From a virus, in the IMG/VR virus record IMGVR_UViG_2554235497_000003, positions 1 to 57,062 of that record: 57,062 nt of DNA. One strand, written 5' to 3'. Every line of letters begins with the position of its first letter. Positions within the stretch are counted from its first letter, which is position 1. A program made the translations under genes and the position numbers. Under the pieces are notes generated by a model. That model saw nothing but the letters and a program-made list of their open reading frames with translations. It was not told the DNA's origin and searched no databases. Below, one piece after another: positions 31,718 to 53,803 of this stretch.

Positions 31718-31794
31718 TCCCTAACGCTTGGTAGCGACGGAAGCCACGAGGGTTCGATTCCCTCTTACGGGATTTCGGGCTTCAATTGCCCGAA
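31718..31794 (+). ncRNA. tRNA-like element T1 plus 3' hairpin
   Basis: TCCCTAA/TTACGGGA acceptor (1 bulge), CGCT-TGGT-AGCG D-like arm, GAGGG-TTCGATT-CCCTC T-arm, then TTCGGGC-TTCAATT-GCCCGAA. Confidence 0.7.
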
Positions 31795-33627: not shown

Positions 33628-33695
33628 ATGGCGACTTGGTAGCTTGTCGAGGTTCAATTCCTCGATCGCCGTTTGGCTGGCATCCACAACTGCCA
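33628..33695 (+). ncRNA. tRNA-like element T2 plus 3' hairpin
   Basis: ATGGCGA/TCGCCGT acceptor, CT-TGGT-AG, TCGAGG-TTCAATT-CCTCGA, then TGGCA..TGCCA. Confidence 0.72.
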
Positions 33696-34041: not shown

Positions 34042-34059
34042 TAGACGTCTATTTCTGTC

Positions 34060-34130
34060 GTCTCGAAGCGTTACAACAGTGATTCGCGCCACTGTCGAGG
34101 CCTTCGGGCACTGAGAACACACCAGCCCGA
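34060..34130 (+). ncRNA. tRNA-like element T6 (variant class) plus 3' hairpin
   Basis: GTCTCG/CGAGGC stem, AAGCGTTACA, ACAGTG-ATTCGCGC-CACTGT, then TCGGGC...GCCCGA. Confidence 0.62.
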
Positions 34131-41203: not shown

Positions 41204-41353
41204 CTCACTCTTCTCAGTTAATTTGTACGAGACTGTTATAGGAAAATTCACATATTCATCCACCGATTGATCACCGAACGGTAAGTACATCTTCTATACT
41301 GAACGCGAGTTTCACAACCTATTCTGAATGAAGAAGCCGTATTGCCACTACTG

Positions 41354-42022
41354 TTAGCGATACTTCGAGATCAGTGACCGAAGATCATCGGCACACTGCT
41401 CCCGTCCACGGCCTTCGTAGTGCGCTGCAAGCTCTACGAGATCAGGGATAGGCACTGCGTTGTCTGGTGCTTCCGCCTCACCAGAGAGCGCGTCAGCAGC
41501 TTCTGAGGAGGGCTTCTGTAAGATGGCTTCGTCCGTCCATCGTTTTGGATCGAGATCGAGGTCGTGCTCATCAGAGATGTCCTCGATCGTTTCTTCGTCA
41601 ACGTCTGGACCAGCGGGAATACGGACCCCGCTCGTCTCGACTTTCGCGTTCTTCGGGTGCGTATCGTCGTCGATTCTCCCGAGGTGCGTAGCAAGGCCGT
41701 GAGTGCCTTTGAAACGCTCACCACACCACTTGCAGAGCAGTAGCTCGTTGTTGAAGTCGATGCTACTCGGGTAGTTGACCGTCGTCTCTTCCTGGCCGAC
41801 GACCTCGAGATTCTCCTTATCTCGTTCCCATGTGTCGGGAAGGTCCTTGTGACCGCCGTGGGCCTCATCGCCTGACCGGTAGACATGGAGATAGAGACCA
41901 CGCGATCGTTTTTCGTCTTCACAGTACGGGCACTTGACGAGGTCCTCTTCGCCCGTATGTTGCTTGTAGCGCGGTTGAGAGTCTTCGCTCACAATACCTC
42001 TGTGTAACCGCTGAGCACTCAT
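41354..42022 (-). CDS. Double C2H2 zinc-finger protein (candidate regulator)
   Basis: CPYC..RGLYLHV...H and CKWC..HGLATH...H. Confidence 0.7.
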   Translation of the reverse strand: MSAQRLHRGIVSEDSQPRYKQHTGEEDLVKCPYCEDEKRSRGLYLHVYRSGDEAHGGHKDLPDTWERDKENLEVVGQEETTVNYPSSIDFNNELLLCKWCGERFKGTHGLATHLGRIDDDTHPKNAKVETSGVRIPAGPDVDEETIEDISDEHDLDLDPKRWTDEAILQKPSSEAADALSGEAEAPDNAVPIPDLVELAAHYEGRGREQCADDLRSLISKYR

Positions 42023-42076
42023 AAGTCTATCCTACAAGGAGAGACCTATGACACAGCGTATCCTATAATGCCATAA

Positions 42077-42101
42077 GAATCTCTTTATAGGAAATCTTTA
42101 T
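42077..42101 (+). promoter_or_regulatory. Viral promoter motif upstream of the tRNA-like array
   Basis: GAATCTC-TTTATA-GGAAATCTTTAT. Confidence 0.65.
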
Positions 42102-42136
42102 GAGGTCTACCGCGAATACTACAGGGGTGAAGGAAC

Positions 42137-42209
42137 GGGAGTCACGCAACTGGTGTTGCCCGTTCGGGTTCGATTCCCGACGTGGCCCTTCCGGGTTCGG
42201 AAAGCCCGG
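42137..42209 (+). ncRNA. tRNA-like element T3 plus 3' hairpin
   Basis: GTCACG/CGTGGC acceptor, CAAC-TGGT-GTTG, TCGGG-TTCGATT-CCCGA, then CCGGGT..GCCCGG. Confidence 0.75.
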
Positions 42210-42272
42210 CGGTTGTCCCACCGCATACTGGCCATCAACTCTTTAACACTAGTCTCAAATTTTCTACTAGAC

Positions 42273-42330
42273 GCCGTGAATGGCTCACGGGGGGTTCGAA
42301 TCCCTCACACGGTTTCCGGGCATTGCCCGG
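42273..42330 (+). ncRNA. tRNA-like element T4 plus 3' hairpin
   Basis: GCCGTG/CACGGT acceptor, A-TGGC-T, GGGGG-TTCGAAT-CCCTC, then CCGGGC-ATT-GCCCGG. Confidence 0.68.
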
Positions 42331-42407
42331 AGTGCCATCGTCGGCACTAACCACCACCGTAGTTACCGCTCGTTTGGGTTGACTTCCACCAGTCATCCCA
42401 TTTCCCT

Positions 42408-42495
42408 GTCTCGATTGGTTTGTAGCCAACAGCTCGGTGCAAGTCCGACTCGAGGCCTTCGGGTGATCGTCAAGAACTGAGAGAGTCTTCACCCC
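42408..42495 (+). ncRNA. tRNA-like element T7 plus 3' hairpin
   Basis: GTCTCGA/TCGAGGC acceptor, TTGGT-TTGTA-GCCAA, TCGG-TGCAAGT-CCGA, then GGGTGA...TCACCC. Confidence 0.62.
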
Positions 42496-42539
42496 ACCTG
42501 TATCGTCCATAAGAAAGACATAGTAAGAAAGTACTAGAC

Positions 42540-43550
42540 ATGAACTCGAAATACAGCAGCTACCAGACCGGAACCGGCAACACCAACAGCACCACCAGCA
42601 GCGGTGACGATGGATACGAACGCGATACGCAGCTCAAGTGGAAGCCGAACGCGACCTTCCGTGGCGTCCTCGACGCAGTTCACGCGGGGGACAACCAGTG
42701 GGGTCAGTCGATCGGTGTCAAATTCACGGACGGCAAGCTTGTCGATGGCGTTCTGATGGAGCGGTTGGACCGCGATACGAACGAGCCGGATGGAACGATC
42801 AAGCTCTTCGCGTGGGAGAATATGCCCGTGATCCTCGACGAGAGTCTATCGGCTGACGACGCTCCCGACGTATTCACCGAGGAGATCGTTGGAAAGACGT
42901 ACCGTTACCAGCTCGTTGGCGCTCGAGTGGAGGGCGACGAAGGGGCAGGTATCGAATCCGATCCCGCCGAGCCGATCGACTTCGGGGACTTCATCGTGTG
43001 GGAAGACGGCGGCAAGAAGCCGTCCTCGACTGCGAAGGTCCTCGCTCAGATGCTCACGACGCCAGGACGAGACGTAATCGTGGACAAGAACGACATCAAC
43101 AACTGGCTCGATGTGCAGAACGTGGAGTTACGCGAGGACCTGATCGGTCGTGAGGTGGACGTGTTCAAGGTCGTCAAACAGGGTGACAAGCACAAGTTCC
43201 ACAGCCCCGTCGTGATCGATGTGAAAACCGGAAAGCAGGTCATGATCGGAAACGGTGGCGGCAGCTCGTCGGCGGCGGAAGGCGGCCAACAGTCGGCGTC
43301 TCGCAGTCCTGCACCTGAAGAGTCTCCCGCTTCCGCCACTCCTGAGTCGGATACAAGCGGTGCTCCCTCTTCGGAGATCCCCGAACCCGTGTCCGACTTT
43401 GTGGAGTTCTGTCGCGATTTCGGGCTAACTGATGAGAGCCAGATTCTCGAGAACCTAAACGACATGGCTGAAGAGGCAGACAACTCCCTGACCCCTGAAA
43501 TGGTCGAAGAAGTCGGCACTGACGCGATCGTCGAGGCGATCGTCAACTAA
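42540..43550 (+). CDS. Replication-module protein (possible ssDNA-binding/annealing)
   Basis: Beta-rich N-terminal domain, flexible linker and acidic tail; first gene of the replication block. Confidence 0.5.
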   Translation: MNSKYSSYQTGTGNTNSTTSSGDDGYERDTQLKWKPNATFRGVLDAVHAGDNQWGQSIGVKFTDGKLVDGVLMERLDRDTNEPDGTIKLFAWENMPVILDESLSADDAPDVFTEEIVGKTYRYQLVGARVEGDEGAGIESDPAEPIDFGDFIVWEDGGKKPSSTAKVLAQMLTTPGRDVIVDKNDINNWLDVQNVELREDLIGREVDVFKVVKQGDKHKFHSPVVIDVKTGKQVMIGNGGGSSSAAEGGQQSASRSPAPEESPASATPESDTSGAPSSEIPEPVSDFVEFCRDFGLTDESQILENLNDMAEEADNSLTPEMVEEVGTDAIVEAIVN

Positions 43551-43567
43551 GCAGGTCCACCACCATC

Positions 43568-43786
43568 ATGAAACTCAAAGAGCACACCGTTAGCTACAGT
43601 CGTCGCGTGCAACTCGAGCGCTTCGAGCCGATCGAGGTCAGCGAGAGCGTGACCGTTGATCTCGAGGAAGGCGACGATCTGGAAGAGGTTTCGTCAGAAC
43701 TCGACGATCTCGTTCGAGAGAACGTTGAGCGCCGCGTTCTGAAGCGCGTCCTCTCGAAGAAGATGGAAGACGACGACGAAGAGTAG
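43568..43786 (+). CDS. Small acidic protein
   Basis: ORF in operon. Confidence 0.65.
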   Translation: MKLKEHTVSYSRRVQLERFEPIEVSESVTVDLEEGDDLEEVSSELDDLVRENVERRVLKRVLSKKMEDDDEE

Positions 43787-43813
43787 ACGACCGTTTTCCG
43801 TAGTCCTGGGGCG

Positions 43814-43847
43814 GCTGCCAGTTTGAAAGATGCATGAAACGAGTAGC
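43814..43847 (+). ncRNA. Conserved stem-loop motif, copy B
   Basis: GCTGC[CAGTTTGAAAGATGCATGAAACGA]GTAGC. Confidence 0.62.
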
Positions 43848-43883
43848 ATCGGCTCCGTGACGACGGAAATCCACCATCACAGA

Positions 43884-45383
43884 ATGTCCGAACTACACAC
43901 CCACGAAGAAACGCCTGAACTGTACGATGTACTCCGTGCAGCGCAAGATGCTGGTCTGGTAGGCGAAGAAGAGACTGCGCTCACGGTGTTCACTGCCATG
44001 ATCCGTGGCGGCCTGGTTATCATGCTTGGTCCGTCACGGGTTGGGAAAACGTTCACAGTACAGTGCATGAGCAAGCCGATCCCTGAGAACGACATTTACG
44101 AGATGAGTACGACTCTCTCACCGACCGCTCTCTACTACGCTGCTGATGAGATCAACAAATGCCGGGTTCACGTCTATCAGGACCTGGCGAGCTTACCAGA
44201 GCACGTCGAAGCGGTCCTGAAAGCGACTGCGGAGGGTCTTCCGGCCAGCAGGGAGATTACCGACGTTACCTCCGGTGAGACGATCCGTATGACGATCGAC
44301 CCACCAGACTGTATCATCGTCGGGATCGCAAGTGACAACGAAAGCGTTGACATCAACGACTTCCCCGAGCTGCGAAACCGGGGACTGATCGTGAGCAACG
44401 ACGCTTCGCAGGAACAGACCGAGCGTATCCTTGACCGGCAGGCCGACGAGATGAGCGGCCTGTACGAACGGCAACTCACCGATGAACAACTCGAGTGGAT
44501 TCAGGAGTATATCGGCTCGATCCCTGTGAGCCGCTACGCTCGAGAGGATTCACTGGGGTCCATCGAGAATATCCCCGGTGGCCGACCGCTACGCGAACAG
44601 GACCCGGTTCCGACGCATTTCACTGAGGCACGGGACGACTACAAGCGGCTGAACAAGTTCATCGAGAGCGTCTGTCTGTTCCACTACCAGGATCGTATGG
44701 AGATCATCCACGATGGCGCGCCGACGCTGCTCGTGACGCCGATCGACGTCTGGTACGGAATGAAGGTATTCGGTGAACAGATGATTATGTCGGCGCTGAA
44801 CCTGCGCGAGATCGATCTCGTGATCCTCGAGTTACTTCGCGAGGAGGCGACCGCGATGACCGTCTCGAAGATCCAGGCCGAGGTTCGCCAACGTGGACAG
44901 GGATACAATATCACCGATCGGGACGTTCACTCATCGCTCAAGTCGATGAAGACGAAGGCCTACGTCGATGTGAACCAGGCGGATAACCCGCAAACGTGGT
45001 ACGCGACAGGATTCGCCTCTGTCGTCGATCACCCTGCGGGGATCGATTACACGAAGCTCGTCGATCGCACCGAAGAGATCGCCCACGAGGTCCTCGAGCC
45101 TGAAATCGCAGAAGAGTATATCGAGCGCTACTGTCGCGGTGAAGGCTTGATCGCAACTGATCCGATCACGGGTGAGCAGGTCAACATCACCGAGGATACG
45201 AGCTTCCAAGAAGCGCTCGATGAGGCCGAAGAAGAAATCGAAGATGTCCTCAACACGCCACTGTGGGGCACAGATGAGAGCGCTGACGAGTCGGAAGGCA
45301 ACGAGGACGAAGAAGTAGAAATTCCTGTCGGTGACTTCGGAACCGTCGAGGGAAGCGAAGCGGGGCAGGGGACGTTGATGTGA
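43884..45383 (+). CDS. P-loop ATPase (AAA+/helicase-like) with probable C-terminal winged helix
   Basis: Walker A GPSRVGKT, VYQD Walker B-like, PELRNR Arg finger; upstream of primase. Confidence 0.75.
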   Translation: MSELHTHEETPELYDVLRAAQDAGLVGEEETALTVFTAMIRGGLVIMLGPSRVGKTFTVQCMSKPIPENDIYEMSTTLSPTALYYAADEINKCRVHVYQDLASLPEHVEAVLKATAEGLPASREITDVTSGETIRMTIDPPDCIIVGIASDNESVDINDFPELRNRGLIVSNDASQEQTERILDRQADEMSGLYERQLTDEQLEWIQEYIGSIPVSRYAREDSLGSIENIPGGRPLREQDPVPTHFTEARDDYKRLNKFIESVCLFHYQDRMEIIHDGAPTLLVTPIDVWYGMKVFGEQMIMSALNLREIDLVILELLREEATAMTVSKIQAEVRQRGQGYNITDRDVHSSLKSMKTKAYVDVNQADNPQTWYATGFASVVDHPAGIDYTKLVDRTEEIAHEVLEPEIAEEYIERYCRGEGLIATDPITGEQVNITEDTSFQEALDEAEEEIEDVLNTPLWGTDESADESEGNEDEEVEIPVGDFGTVEGSEAGQGTLM

Positions 45384-45490: not shown

Positions 45491-46681
45491 ATGACCGCAG
45501 AGATCGCATCGGCAATCGCCGTATGGTGTCCGAGTTATCCACGTCGAGTGACGGCCCACCAGCACTGGGCAACCTCGCCGCTCGAGGTTGGCAAGCGGAT
45601 CAAGGCGGTTGATGGAACCGACGTTGCACCGTTCGTGAGTGTCTACAGCTTCCCGAACGGTCACACGCAGGAGGGCGGCGTTCCGGCCATTGATACGCTG
45701 TTCATCGACTTCGATATTCCAAGCGGTGGCGAATATCGGAGTACGAACCCCGATCCGCAAGCGTGGTATCGGGACATGAGCGCGTTATTGACTCGAGTCC
45801 GTGAGGTGTGCCGGCTCCTCGTTCGCGAGGGGTTGGATCACCATTATCGGGCAGCGCTTTCGGGTCACAAGGGCGTTCACCTCTACCTGGACTTCCCGAC
45901 GATCGATCCTGATGAGGGGACGCCAGGGCAGTTCAAGAACGGGATGAGGCAGTACGCTGACGAGTTGATCTCTTATCTCGAATCGCAGACGTACCTTGAT
46001 CTCGAGGCTTGGGTTGACGTTGACAGCAGTGACTTGGCCCGGTTGTGCCGCCTTCCGAACACGAGACATAGTGGGGCGTCGGTGGCCTTCGATGAAGATC
46101 GGTACTGTGTACCTGTATCGATCAGAGAGCTTGCCAATATCACGCCCAACGAGTATGCGAAGCTCACTCGCTCACCTCGTCCTGTGCCGAAAGAGTGCCG
46201 TCGAAACCCGAGTCATCGGGCGCATGACGTACTCACACAGTACATCCGCGACGCTACCGGCGGCCACTATCGAGGAGCCAGCCGGTTCGACCCGAAAGCG
46301 CTCGAGCGCTACGAGGACGAGCAGAACGAGGATCTCACACTCGAGGATGTACCGTTCCTGATGAGCAGGAAGCCGTGTATTGGTGCGTTTCGCGAGCGCG
46401 CAGATATGTTTGCACACGGCGCTGCGAGTCACGCAATGGAGTTGAACGTAATCGCACACCTCGTTGAAGAGCGCGTTCCGATCGACGTGATCGTGGAGTT
46501 CTTCAGCGATGCACCGGAGTTCAACGAGGAGTTCACTCGTCACCAGATCGAGAAGGTAATCGCTCACCAGCTCAATCCGTATCGCTGCGATACGATTTGG
46601 GCACAAGCGGAGATGTTCTGCCTCGGCCCTGACGAGTGTGACCTCTATAGTCGGTACACAGGGACAGAAGCCACCCATTGA
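45491..46681 (+). CDS. Archaeo-eukaryotic primase (PriS) fused to a PriL-C-like domain
   Basis: FIDFD, SGHKGVHLY, RLCRLPNT; C-terminal KPCI...H...YRCDTI...C....C. Confidence 0.85.
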   Translation: MTAEIASAIAVWCPSYPRRVTAHQHWATSPLEVGKRIKAVDGTDVAPFVSVYSFPNGHTQEGGVPAIDTLFIDFDIPSGGEYRSTNPDPQAWYRDMSALLTRVREVCRLLVREGLDHHYRAALSGHKGVHLYLDFPTIDPDEGTPGQFKNGMRQYADELISYLESQTYLDLEAWVDVDSSDLARLCRLPNTRHSGASVAFDEDRYCVPVSIRELANITPNEYAKLTRSPRPVPKECRRNPSHRAHDVLTQYIRDATGGHYRGASRFDPKALERYEDEQNEDLTLEDVPFLMSRKPCIGAFRERADMFAHGAASHAMELNVIAHLVEERVPIDVIVEFFSDAPEFNEEFTRHQIEKVIAHQLNPYRCDTIWAQAEMFCLGPDECDLYSRYTGTEATH

Positions 46682-48265: not shown

Positions 48266-48561
48266 TGGGTGCGGATCGCCACCCGACGTCTGTTCCATCG
48301 AACTTCGACGAGATTGAAGATCGGCTACCGGAACCGGACTCATCGACTGCGGAGAAGAAACGAGACAAGCGAGCCGGTGAGCGTGGGTTGTACCACCTAT
48401 GGCTCGCAGAAGAGTGTCAGGCTGCACTCGAGCCGTCGTTCATCTATATCGACGCGCTTTCCGCCACCGAAGCGACGATTCGCGGTCATGTGATCGCCAT
48501 CGCATTTGGTGCAACGTGTGCCTGTCAGGTAGACGTTCGACCTGTTGAGGTCTACGTCTAA
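48265..48561 (+). CDS. Hypothetical protein
   Basis: Coupled start. Confidence 0.5.
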   Translation: MGADRHPTSVPSNFDEIEDRLPEPDSSTAEKKRDKRAGERGLYHLWLAEECQAALEPSFIYIDALSATEATIRGHVIAIAFGATCACQVDVRPVEVYV

Positions 48562-52267: not shown

Positions 52268-53179
52268 ATGAGCCAAGCCCAACTGATTAGCGACAGCCTT
52301 GACCCGATCCCGAAACAGCGCCTCGAGCCTGTTGACGTTATCACGACCGTCAACGGTGGGACCGATACGGCCTATGCAGCCGCACGATCCGGTGTTCTGA
52401 TCGGATATGAGTCAAGCGAGACGCGACCACCGGACGAGATCCCGATCGATTTCGTAGACTGGCCGTTTCGCAAGATAGACGAGGGTTCCGCCATCGACGA
52501 GGTGTTCGAACAACACCTTGCGGTGGTGAAGCGAGAACGACCCAAGTACGCAGTTGCCCCCGATATAGACGAGCACGTTGGCTACATCGAGGCGATCCAA
52601 TACGCGCTGAAACTACAGCGCTACTGTGATACAGTGATCGTGGTTCCGAAATCGGTTCATCCTCAAGATGTGCCACGACAGTTCCGGGTTGGAATGCCCT
52701 GCCAGGATCGTTTCGGTGGGACTCCGCATCCGTGGACCGAGTACGCGAACTGCAAAGAGGTGCATCTCCTCGGTGGCAACCCGGCGAAGCAAACACAGAT
52801 CGGGAAGTACTACGTCCCCGTGTGCTCTCTCGATACCGCCGTTCCGATCTCGAGGGCGCGTTGGGGCAAGGTATGGACGGGAAAGAAGTTCATACGGAAG
52901 CGGAAGGGCTTCTACGGAAGCATCGAAGAGAGCTTCGCGACTCTCTGGAGAGAGTGGAATCCCGATCGCTACTCTTCGTCTCGTGAGATGCGCTGGAAGT
53001 ATCCAAAGCCGCTGAGCGGCAACCCGATCTACGACAACGATCCGTTCGAGGTCGAGGACTATCTCATGGATGACGAAGAAATCCCGTTCCCTGGAAGAGC
53101 GTGGTGCTACGAGAACGATATCGAAGAGTGGCGAGAGAAGAATACCGGTCGAGGTATCGATGTGAAGCCCACGTCGTGA
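52268..53179 (+). CDS. tRNA-guanine-transglycosylase-like TIM-barrel protein (DUF6610/DpdA-like)
   Basis: YAVAPD, VIVVPK, VHLLGG, SLDT motifs. Confidence 0.62.
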   Translation: MSQAQLISDSLDPIPKQRLEPVDVITTVNGGTDTAYAAARSGVLIGYESSETRPPDEIPIDFVDWPFRKIDEGSAIDEVFEQHLAVVKRERPKYAVAPDIDEHVGYIEAIQYALKLQRYCDTVIVVPKSVHPQDVPRQFRVGMPCQDRFGGTPHPWTEYANCKEVHLLGGNPAKQTQIGKYYVPVCSLDTAVPISRARWGKVWTGKKFIRKRKGFYGSIEESFATLWREWNPDRYSSSREMRWKYPKPLSGNPIYDNDPFEVEDYLMDDEEIPFPGRAWCYENDIEEWREKNTGRGIDVKPTS

Positions 53180-53284: not shown

Positions 53285-53803
53285 ATGGAATCCAATGTCT
53301 ATACTCCTCGAATCAAGCGATCGGAAGTTGATCTGATCCCCCTACTTCCTGGCCTTGCCCGGATACTGAAACATGGCCTGGACGTTCCCGAGTTGAAGAT
53401 ACGGCACGCTCGTCTCGATGAAGACGGCAACTGGTCGATTGATGACGATATAGAGGCGTTCCTGTGGTATCCCGGTGGTCCAACCCAAACGTGTTTTTGG
53501 GAAATTACTCGGTTCAAGCAAGCTCTGGATGGATCAGAGCAGAAAACAACCGATTACTACCAGACAGAGTACTACAACGTTCCCCGCATCTTCCTCGATT
53601 ACGCCGATCAGTGGATACACGAGGAGCAGCGGATGTGGTTCGTTGTTGATGTGAACAACTGGCAGCTCGAGGAGTGGCTACACGAAAATGGCGTCCTCGA
53701 GCTATCGGACGAGATTATAGCGTCAGCTAAGACACGAAATGAAACTATACGTAACGAACATAACGACGGCATGGAACGAGGACAGGGCACAACAGACGAT
53801 TAA
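53285..53803 (+). CDS. Hypothetical protein
   Basis: Acidic ORF with own AT-rich promoter-like region (about 53190-53205). Confidence 0.6.
   Translation: MESNVYTPRIKRSEVDLIPLLPGLARILKHGLDVPELKIRHARLDEDGNWSIDDDIEAFLWYPGGPTQTCFWEITRFKQALDGSEQKTTDYYQTEYYNVPRIFLDYADQWIHEEQRMWFVVDVNNWQLEEWLHENGVLELSDEIIASAKTRNETIRNEHNDGMERGQGTTDD

Follow-up and report, generated by a model that had tools for sequence, protein, structure and literature searches.

Tandem mini-tRNAs in the leader of a haloarchaeal provirus replication module as candidate RNA-processing signals

The leader of the replication-side gene module in a haloarchaeal tailed-virus provirus carries three mini-tRNAs in tandem. These units are viral t-elements, that is, tRNA "top halves" made of an acceptor stem, a short linker with the GG of the tRNA elbow, and a T arm. 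They form part of a family conserved in structure, for which a covariance model and the covariation of its stems are decisive, and the array descends from a cluster of tRNA genes that related haloviruses still carry at this place. We put at roughly two in three the probability that the units are cut by host RNase P and tRNase Z, so that the RNAs downstream gain hairpin-capped 5' ends. Co-transcription of the array, its cleavage and a stabilizing role for the hairpins are what we infer from the structure of the family, its match to a host t-element, the presence of the host enzymes, synteny with the virus HF2, the placement of the elements, the origin of the third unit, the hairpins, and the wider occurrence of such elements.

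The window (the whole stretch of 57,062 nucleotides that was analyzed) is segment G000:C26:76098-133159 of a 3.46-Mb haloarchaeal assembly, and the provirus lies inside it. Genes for the large terminase and the tail sheath are on its minus strand; its plus strand encodes a family-B DNA polymerase (PolB), exonucleases and a weakly primase-like protein. The array sits in a 517-nt gap (42023-42539) between a divergent C2H2-like gene and the gene at 42540-43550. The divergence from a zinc-finger gene, which a sequence-only reading of this DNA had claimed, holds, in that the ORF at 41354-42022 contains two C2H2-like motifs (PHROG match 1e-87, zf-C2H2 match weak). The protein of 42540-43550 has homologs at 26-36% identity in 53 haloarchaeal tailed-virus records, among them the Hafunaviridae HF1, HF2, HRTV-25 and HRTV-27; an IMG/VR search with this protein gave no match, nor did a phage-collection DNA search with 41300-44000 as query. 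The features of the region are as follows.

41354-42022, minus strand: divergent gene with two C2H2-like zinc-finger motifs (phrog_14797), from the ORF list and its translation
42083-42103, plus strand: two AT-rich promoter-like boxes (TATA/BRE-like), read directly and conserved in relatives
42140-42188, plus strand: U1, mini-tRNA (t-element), from the scanner and a fold with acceptor and T arm
42189-42272, plus strand: spacer 1, 84 nt, with hairpins at 42191-42209 and 42210-42223 and then an A/T-rich tail
42273-42314, plus strand: U2, mini-tRNA (t-element), from the covariance model and orthologs
42315-42407, plus strand: spacer 2, 93 nt, with hairpins at 42315-42331 and 42332-42347 and a single-stranded motif at 42357-42379
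42408-42457, plus strand: U3, mini-tRNA descended, by alignment, from a viral tRNA-Asn(GTT), with 7/7 acceptor pairs in the scanner
42458-42539, plus strand: 82-nt stretch from U3 to the start codon, read directly
42540-43550, plus strand: first gene of the replication-side module (phrog_12260; homolog of HF2 HrrHF2_270)

The sequence-only reading had described a promoter followed by three tRNA-like units, each with hairpins and a unique spacer, and as an observation this is confirmed as a whole, every point being found in place. The three acceptor-like stems begin at 42141, 42273 and 42408, at intervals of 132 and 135 nt; hairpins set in 0-3 nt past the discriminator base of every unit; and both spacers are without ATG, the sole ATG of the leader (42280) being inside U2. 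The units lie downstream of a putative promoter, whose two-box motif is found at the same place in the relatives G041, G120, G123 and L027-L031, and the boxes are probably bidirectional.

U1 has an acceptor stem of 6 bp plus an A.C mismatch, a 17-nt linker that contains TGG and a small hairpin, a T arm of 5 bp whose 7-nt T loop is canonical, and a discriminator at its end; its ortholog in G041 is 89% identical across 99 nt. In U2 the acceptor stem is 6 bp, the linker 10 nt and the T arm canonical. The acceptor stem of U3 is 7 bp long, its 18-nt linker contains a 4-bp hairpin, and its T arm, of 4 bp, ends in a variant T loop. With linkers of just 10-18 nt, all three units are without functional D and anticodon arms, and because no anticodon arm is present (only the 4-bp remnant hairpin in U3) they cannot decode. 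CCA is not encoded after any of the discriminators. A canonical tRNA gene was considered and rejected, as neither ARAGORN nor Rfam found a complete cloverleaf with an anticodon arm: ARAGORN called 0 tRNA genes in the window, Rfam gave nothing at gathering score there, and the Rfam tRNA model had no match in 41900-42700 even at E values up to 10. ORFs within the leader (e.g. 42235-42510 on the minus strand and 42280-42480 on the plus strand) were likewise rejected as genes, since relatives give only fragmentary, mixed-frame matches to them.

Folding energy alone is unconvincing here: single-unit folding z-scores are an unremarkable −0.6 to −1.9, and the minimum free energy fold of the 421-nt leader is without the tRNA-like folds. 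The case is therefore a comparative one. A simple descriptor scan, which gave 123 non-tRNA matches on both strands of the 3.46-Mb genome, is too unspecific at that scale and served only to locate elements.

For the comparison we built a covariance model, R2, seeded from three viral copies and iterated once; it was seeded in this way because MAFFT misaligned the 5' acceptor strands of copies with differing linker lengths. An earlier model, R1, was too sequence-specific. R2 was run on both strands of the window and 22 related loci (149 kb), where it gave 28 matches at E<0.05 under a shortened calibration that makes its E values rough, and 28 of the 28 were on the gene-sense strand. Copies in the window lie between ORFs and those in relatives lie upstream of the homologous gene; elsewhere in the window, the next-best matches have E above 2. 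U1 scores 53.8 bits and is itself a training-set member, while U2, which is outside the training set, scores 22.8 bits (E 0.003-0.004, rough for the same reason). U3 was not picked up by R2, and its status comes from the scanner and from orthology. On the host genome, R2 returned the two strongest provirus copies among the 150 of 4427 candidates that were scored.

Pairing is kept while sequence changes. On the match alignment, which was fitted to the model structure and so favors pairing, 97% of stem cells are paired against 40-55% in slid-partner controls, and both sides have changed in 10 of the 11 pairs. The acceptor helix, over 26 distinct family members, has 94% pairing with covariation in all 6 of its pairs; pairing in the T helix of the family alignment is 100%. 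The orthologs of U2 (G041, G120, G123 and L027-L031) differ in both acceptor and T stems with pairing kept, and read directly they present six different acceptor-stem sequences, every one of which pairs. Every full-length member (25/25) has TGG two bases past the acceptor 5' strand, the position expected, to judge from tRNA structure, for the G18-G19 elbow contact with the T loop. The pattern of stems, TGG and T arm means that the conserved part is the tRNA top half. This is the part of a tRNA that RNase P, tRNase Z and the CCA-adding enzyme recognize.

The origin of the array is visible in relatives. At the syntenic place HF2 has the promoter repeat IR3, a tRNA-Asn(GTT), a tRNA-Tyr-like gene and then, 82 nt later, the homolog HrrHF2_270. 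HF2 and the provirus thus share the order of bidirectional promoter, tRNA-shaped elements and a homologous gene about 82 nt on, but where HF2 has one high-scoring tRNA and one atypical one, the provirus has no decodable tRNA, minimal forms only, and one unit more. IR3 is bidirectional and drives an 18-kb transcript (F52) that includes PolB (PMC8707807). Since the IR3 layout matches the divergent layout here, the array would by homology with F52 (PMC8707807) stand at the head of the replication transcript, in agreement with the sequence-only reading, which had made it the leader of a replication operon.

Metagenome relatives with 56-70% protein identity show both full-tRNA and mini states. ARAGORN finds full tRNA-Asn genes in L028, L030 and L031; L027 and L029 have mini forms, that of L029 with the same acceptor stem as U3. 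Aligned to the full tRNA-Asn of L028, L030, L031 and HF2, U3 shares their acceptor stem and has an internal gap of 23-26 nt, by which it has lost the D arm and half of the anticodon arm; on this alignment, U3 is an internally deleted descendant of a viral tRNA-Asn. In L028 the middle unit of the array is a full tRNA-Trp(CCA) gene (1205-1280), so the cluster has held different tRNA identities. That three copies were present where one cut would suffice had been argued to mark the released RNAs as the products; this argument is weakened by the array being the remains of a viral tRNA gene cluster.

Whatever form the last element takes (full tRNA-Asn, tRNA-Tyr-like gene or mini form), its end lies 72-95 nt ahead of the start codon at 12 of 13 scanner-scored loci, the exception being L017 at 143 nt. 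The corresponding distance is about 63-77 nt in the four metagenome relatives whose last element was scored, the start codon of L028 having been corrected by eye. Copy number was compared across relatives, as the sequence-only reading had proposed, and the multi-unit arrangement recurs with 1-4 units; the fixed period of ~133 nt that it had seen does not, as spacing in relatives runs from 92 to 165 nt. In G120, G123 and L027 a plain stem-loop replaces U1, with the hairpins of spacer 1 retained. G120 and G123 have different cargo genes inserted between the U2 module and U3, which suggests that this point of the leader is a hot spot for cargo insertion. The two proviruses are near-identical; the insert in G120 (L012, ~860-1300) is a plus-strand ORF resembling secreted proteins or lipoproteins, and that in G123 (L013) is a small minus-strand ORF. 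With a minus-strand gene in that position, the whole array of G123 cannot be a single transcript, which counts against the cleavage reading.

Elements of this shape also occur in the host itself. Upstream of both host 5S rRNA genes lies an element whose end is 1-2 nt from the 5S start, and the virus-trained R2 model detects the two copies (28.8 bits, E 2e-6) when the 5S leaders are searched directly.

L039 50-91 (host contig C58): host t-element upstream of a 5S rRNA gene, from R2
L040 42-83 (host contig C28): host t-element upstream of a 5S rRNA gene, from R2

The linker of the host element resembles that of the viral U2 orthologs. The units have the characters of t-elements: an acceptor-like stem of 6-7 bp, a T arm stacked on the acceptor 3' strand, a non-canonical cloverleaf, and similarity to the cellular 5S-leader element. 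In Haloferax volcanii, the t-element of the 5S leader is the tRNase Z substrate that yields the 5S 5' end (Hoelzle et al. 2008, as cited in PMC4326828), and t-elements placed on either side of a crRNA are cut in vivo by RNase P and tRNase Z in Haloferax (PMC4326828, PMC4946936). Both enzymes are represented in the host, by an RNase P RNA (107 bits) and a tRNase Z (331 bits) that score above their cut-offs. The match to the host element together with these enzymes gives the viral units the shape of a known substrate in the host lineage. Against cleavage counts a result that Hoelzle et al. reportedly published in Biochimie in 2012, namely that other predicted tRNA-like elements of Haloferax are left uncut by tRNase Z in vitro. 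The provirus contig also carries a second tRNase Z-like (metallo-beta-lactamase) ORF, of 293 aa, ~29 kb ahead of the window (G000:C26:46770-47489), with a partial score of 112 bits that is below the cut-off.

Under the cleavage reading, transcription would start from the promoter-like boxes near 42083-42103, and each element would then be cut on its 5' side by host RNase P and, just past its discriminator base, by host tRNase Z. The predicted products are three mini-tRNAs (~42-50 nt), the two spacers as structured RNAs (84 and 93 nt), and a downstream message whose 5' end would be at ~42458, with a hairpin (42461-42494) first and 82 nt before the start codon. What the virus would probably gain is RNA with fixed 5' ends shielded by hairpins, and a long transcript whose segments can each have a fate of their own. 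Counting against cleavage, another AT-rich, promoter-like box lies at 42507-42517, 30 nt ahead of the start codon, and could provide a leaderless mRNA independent of the array.

Mini-tRNAs are also found outside the leader. In isolated viruses R2 gives 5 matches in HRTV-27, 2 in HRTV-25 and 1 in HF2, all on the sense strand of early genes. Compared with the GenBank annotation, 5 of the 6 in HRTV-27 and HF2 fall entirely within gaps that carry no annotation, with the next start codon 30-67 nt on:

HRTV-27 (MZ334522.1) 46378-46417, sense strand: mini-tRNA match in an unannotated gap
HRTV-27 (MZ334522.1) 48509-48550, sense strand: mini-tRNA match in an unannotated gap
HRTV-27 (MZ334522.1) 52896-52936, sense strand: mini-tRNA match in an unannotated gap
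HRTV-27 (MZ334522.1) 53651-53691, sense strand: mini-tRNA match in an unannotated gap
HF2 (AF222060.2) 2905-2946, sense strand: mini-tRNA match in an unannotated gap

HRTV-25 (L002, MZ334521.1) has a tRNA-Tyr-like gene called by ARAGORN (1823-1892) and a mini-tRNA (2068-2118), both antisense to small annotated CDSs, gp69 and gp68, which may be mis-annotations over RNA elements. The window itself holds further mini-tRNA-like elements on the plus strand at 31719-31772, 33628-33673 and 34057-34101, in intergenic gaps ~34-77 nt before the next start codon. The second of these is an R2 training-set member (33629-33672, 44.8 bits), and the one near 34057 has its acceptor 3' strand and the bases after it in common with U3.

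The spacers bear on what the array produces. In its interpretation the sequence-only reading had likened the array to a repeat-spacer array processed by host enzymes. Its tRNA-like modules, promoter-like motif and host-enzyme processing carry over into our reading; the repeat-spacer analogy, the period, the guide spacers and their targets do not. U3 comes from a viral tRNA-Asn, and U1 and U2 are of different lineages, so they are not copies of one repeat. The spacers are unique within the array, as had been said, but they are conserved in related proviruses and structured, and so are not variable in the manner of guides. Complementarity of the spacers to the host genome is at chance level (exact matches up to 13 nt, one-mismatch matches up to 17 nt, all with E ~3), and that to the provirus, at most 12 nt, is not above chance. 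A CRISPR-like array is accordingly rejected: the units share only the core of the T arm, spacing is 92-165 nt, the spacers are conserved and no targets were found in these searches.

Both hairpins of spacer 1 are conserved with compensatory changes in G041, G120 and L027. For spacer 2, an alignment and consensus fold with 8 relatives show that the two hairpins and a single-stranded motif of ~20 nt are retained, and this conserved fold speaks for some function. The motif (42357-42379) is unique within the window, and its IMG/VR match is one provirus, a duplicate of G123. Another conserved motif, with TACTACGC, follows the hairpin of a third module in L014, L027, L028-L031, L002 and L020; the window is without that module. 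From their conservation we judge that the spacers have some function, whether as RNA products, as leader structures acting in cis or as DNA of the control region. That the leader is a production line, from which host RNase P and tRNase Z excise structured small RNAs and the 84- and 93-nt spacers act in trans, seems to us rather doubtful; it would be an archaeal counterpart of the herpesviral tRNA-miRNA units and a natural version of the Haloferax crRNA cassette flanked by t-elements.

An objection to our reading is that the array might chiefly be a factory for small structured RNAs, with the spacers or the mini-tRNAs acting in trans like the tRNA-miRNA units of MHV68. This is compatible with cleavage and differs in which product is useful, and we consider it clearly less likely than our reading, but a possibility to be taken seriously. 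The hairpins and motif of spacer 2 are kept, with some compensatory changes, where the neighboring protein is just 56-75% identical; the hairpins of spacer 1 covary too, and they persist in G120, G123 and L027, where U1 has given way to a plain stem-loop; and several units are retained where a single cut would be enough. Conserved spacers are, however, equally explicable as cis-acting leader elements or as DNA sites for bidirectional control, their content and number differ among relatives, no Rfam family matches them, and their complementarity to host and provirus is no better than chance. The units could also be viral tRNA genes in decay that no longer have a function, given the full tRNA-Asn and tRNA-Trp genes at the same places in close relatives, the variant T loop and 4-bp T stem of U3, and the variable copy number. 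We regard this as unlikely, because the stems remain paired despite many double changes while the linkers diverge, every full-length copy retains the GG motif and the T loop, and the D and anticodon arms have been removed cleanly rather than by random loss; nor would decay account for mini forms at many other intergenic sites, always on the sense strand, or for the conserved distance to the start codon.

Two further readings also concern the tRNA shape. The mini-tRNAs could act otherwise through the shape of the acceptor and T arm, either as decoys or sponges for host factors (the CCA-adding enzyme, modification enzymes or tRNA-targeting defense nucleases) or as 5' structures that affect translation. 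It is exactly the top-half determinants that are conserved, and roles of viral tRNAs beyond decoding have been proposed (PMC13532342). A location just before genes and a hairpin right after the discriminator nevertheless fit a cleavage signal better, and the similarly shaped element of the host is a processing signal (PMC4326828); we think a role of this kind quite improbable. Partial tRNA sequences serve as attP in HF1-group viruses (PMC8707807, PMC7230728), so the units might be attP sites for integration into host tRNA genes, but this is hardly tenable. In short-word BLAST, identity to host tRNA genes is confined to 11-15 nt of the T arm; the array is internal, between the promoter and the replication genes, adjoining neither a provirus end nor an integrase; and there are three differing units here and many more elsewhere. 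We therefore rejected a tRNA-fragment attP site, which identity of at most 15 nt in the T arm only and the internal position contradict.

In HF1-group viruses conserved "tRNA-like sequences" have been described, either unexplained or as attP (PMC7230728, PMC8707807). Cut signals of tRNA-like shape are known from mitochondria and from host 5S rRNA, and no paper among those searchable describes an archaeal virus with t-elements as processing signals. What is new here is that mini-tRNAs stand in tandem in a leader, that this array descends from a cluster of tRNA genes, and that the RNAs of its spacers are conserved. Little has been established about the processing of the very long transcripts of archaeal tailed viruses. 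If the elements are cut, as we favor, this would be a viral form of the "tRNA punctuation" of mitochondria that borrows host RNase P and tRNase Z. It would account for many unannotated gaps of 70-130 nt in Hafunaviridae genomes, correct some small ORFs annotated over tRNA-like elements, and offer a reason why viral tRNA genes at operon heads persist after loss of the anticodon arm. Haloarchaeal genetics, which already makes crRNAs from constructs flanked by t-elements, would also gain compact processing cassettes of natural origin.

Among known systems, tRNA-like modules recruit RNase P and/or tRNase Z, with release of the neighboring RNAs, in MALAT1/mascRNA and in the TMERs of murine gammaherpesvirus 68, the latter being tRNA-like modules followed by hairpins. 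These systems are eukaryotic, whereas the array is archaeal-viral, and archaea are not known to have a miRNA pathway. U1 is weakly similar to mascRNA, but membership in mascRNA-menRNA (Rfam RF01684) was rejected at 17.4 bits against a gathering threshold of 42.5. The haloarchaeal 5S t-element has, like the units, a 6-bp acceptor, a short TGG linker, a canonical T loop and no anticodon arm, and it too lies directly upstream of the 5' end of another RNA. It is cellular, with one copy per rRNA operon, while the units are viral, three in tandem with more elsewhere; they also differ from it in deriving from viral tRNA genes, in the conserved hairpins that follow them, and in having protein-coding genes downstream. 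In plant mitochondria, tRNAs and t-elements within long transcripts direct RNase P and RNase Z to form the 5' and 3' ends of mRNAs, and these t-elements were located by the same search for a T-arm motif (PMC1920247, PMC3790967). There the setting is a eukaryotic organelle and cleavage has been mapped experimentally, whereas for the viral array we infer it. Simple acceptor-like stem-loops can substitute for t-elements in plant mitochondria, and seemingly they do likewise at the U1 position in G120, G123 and L027.
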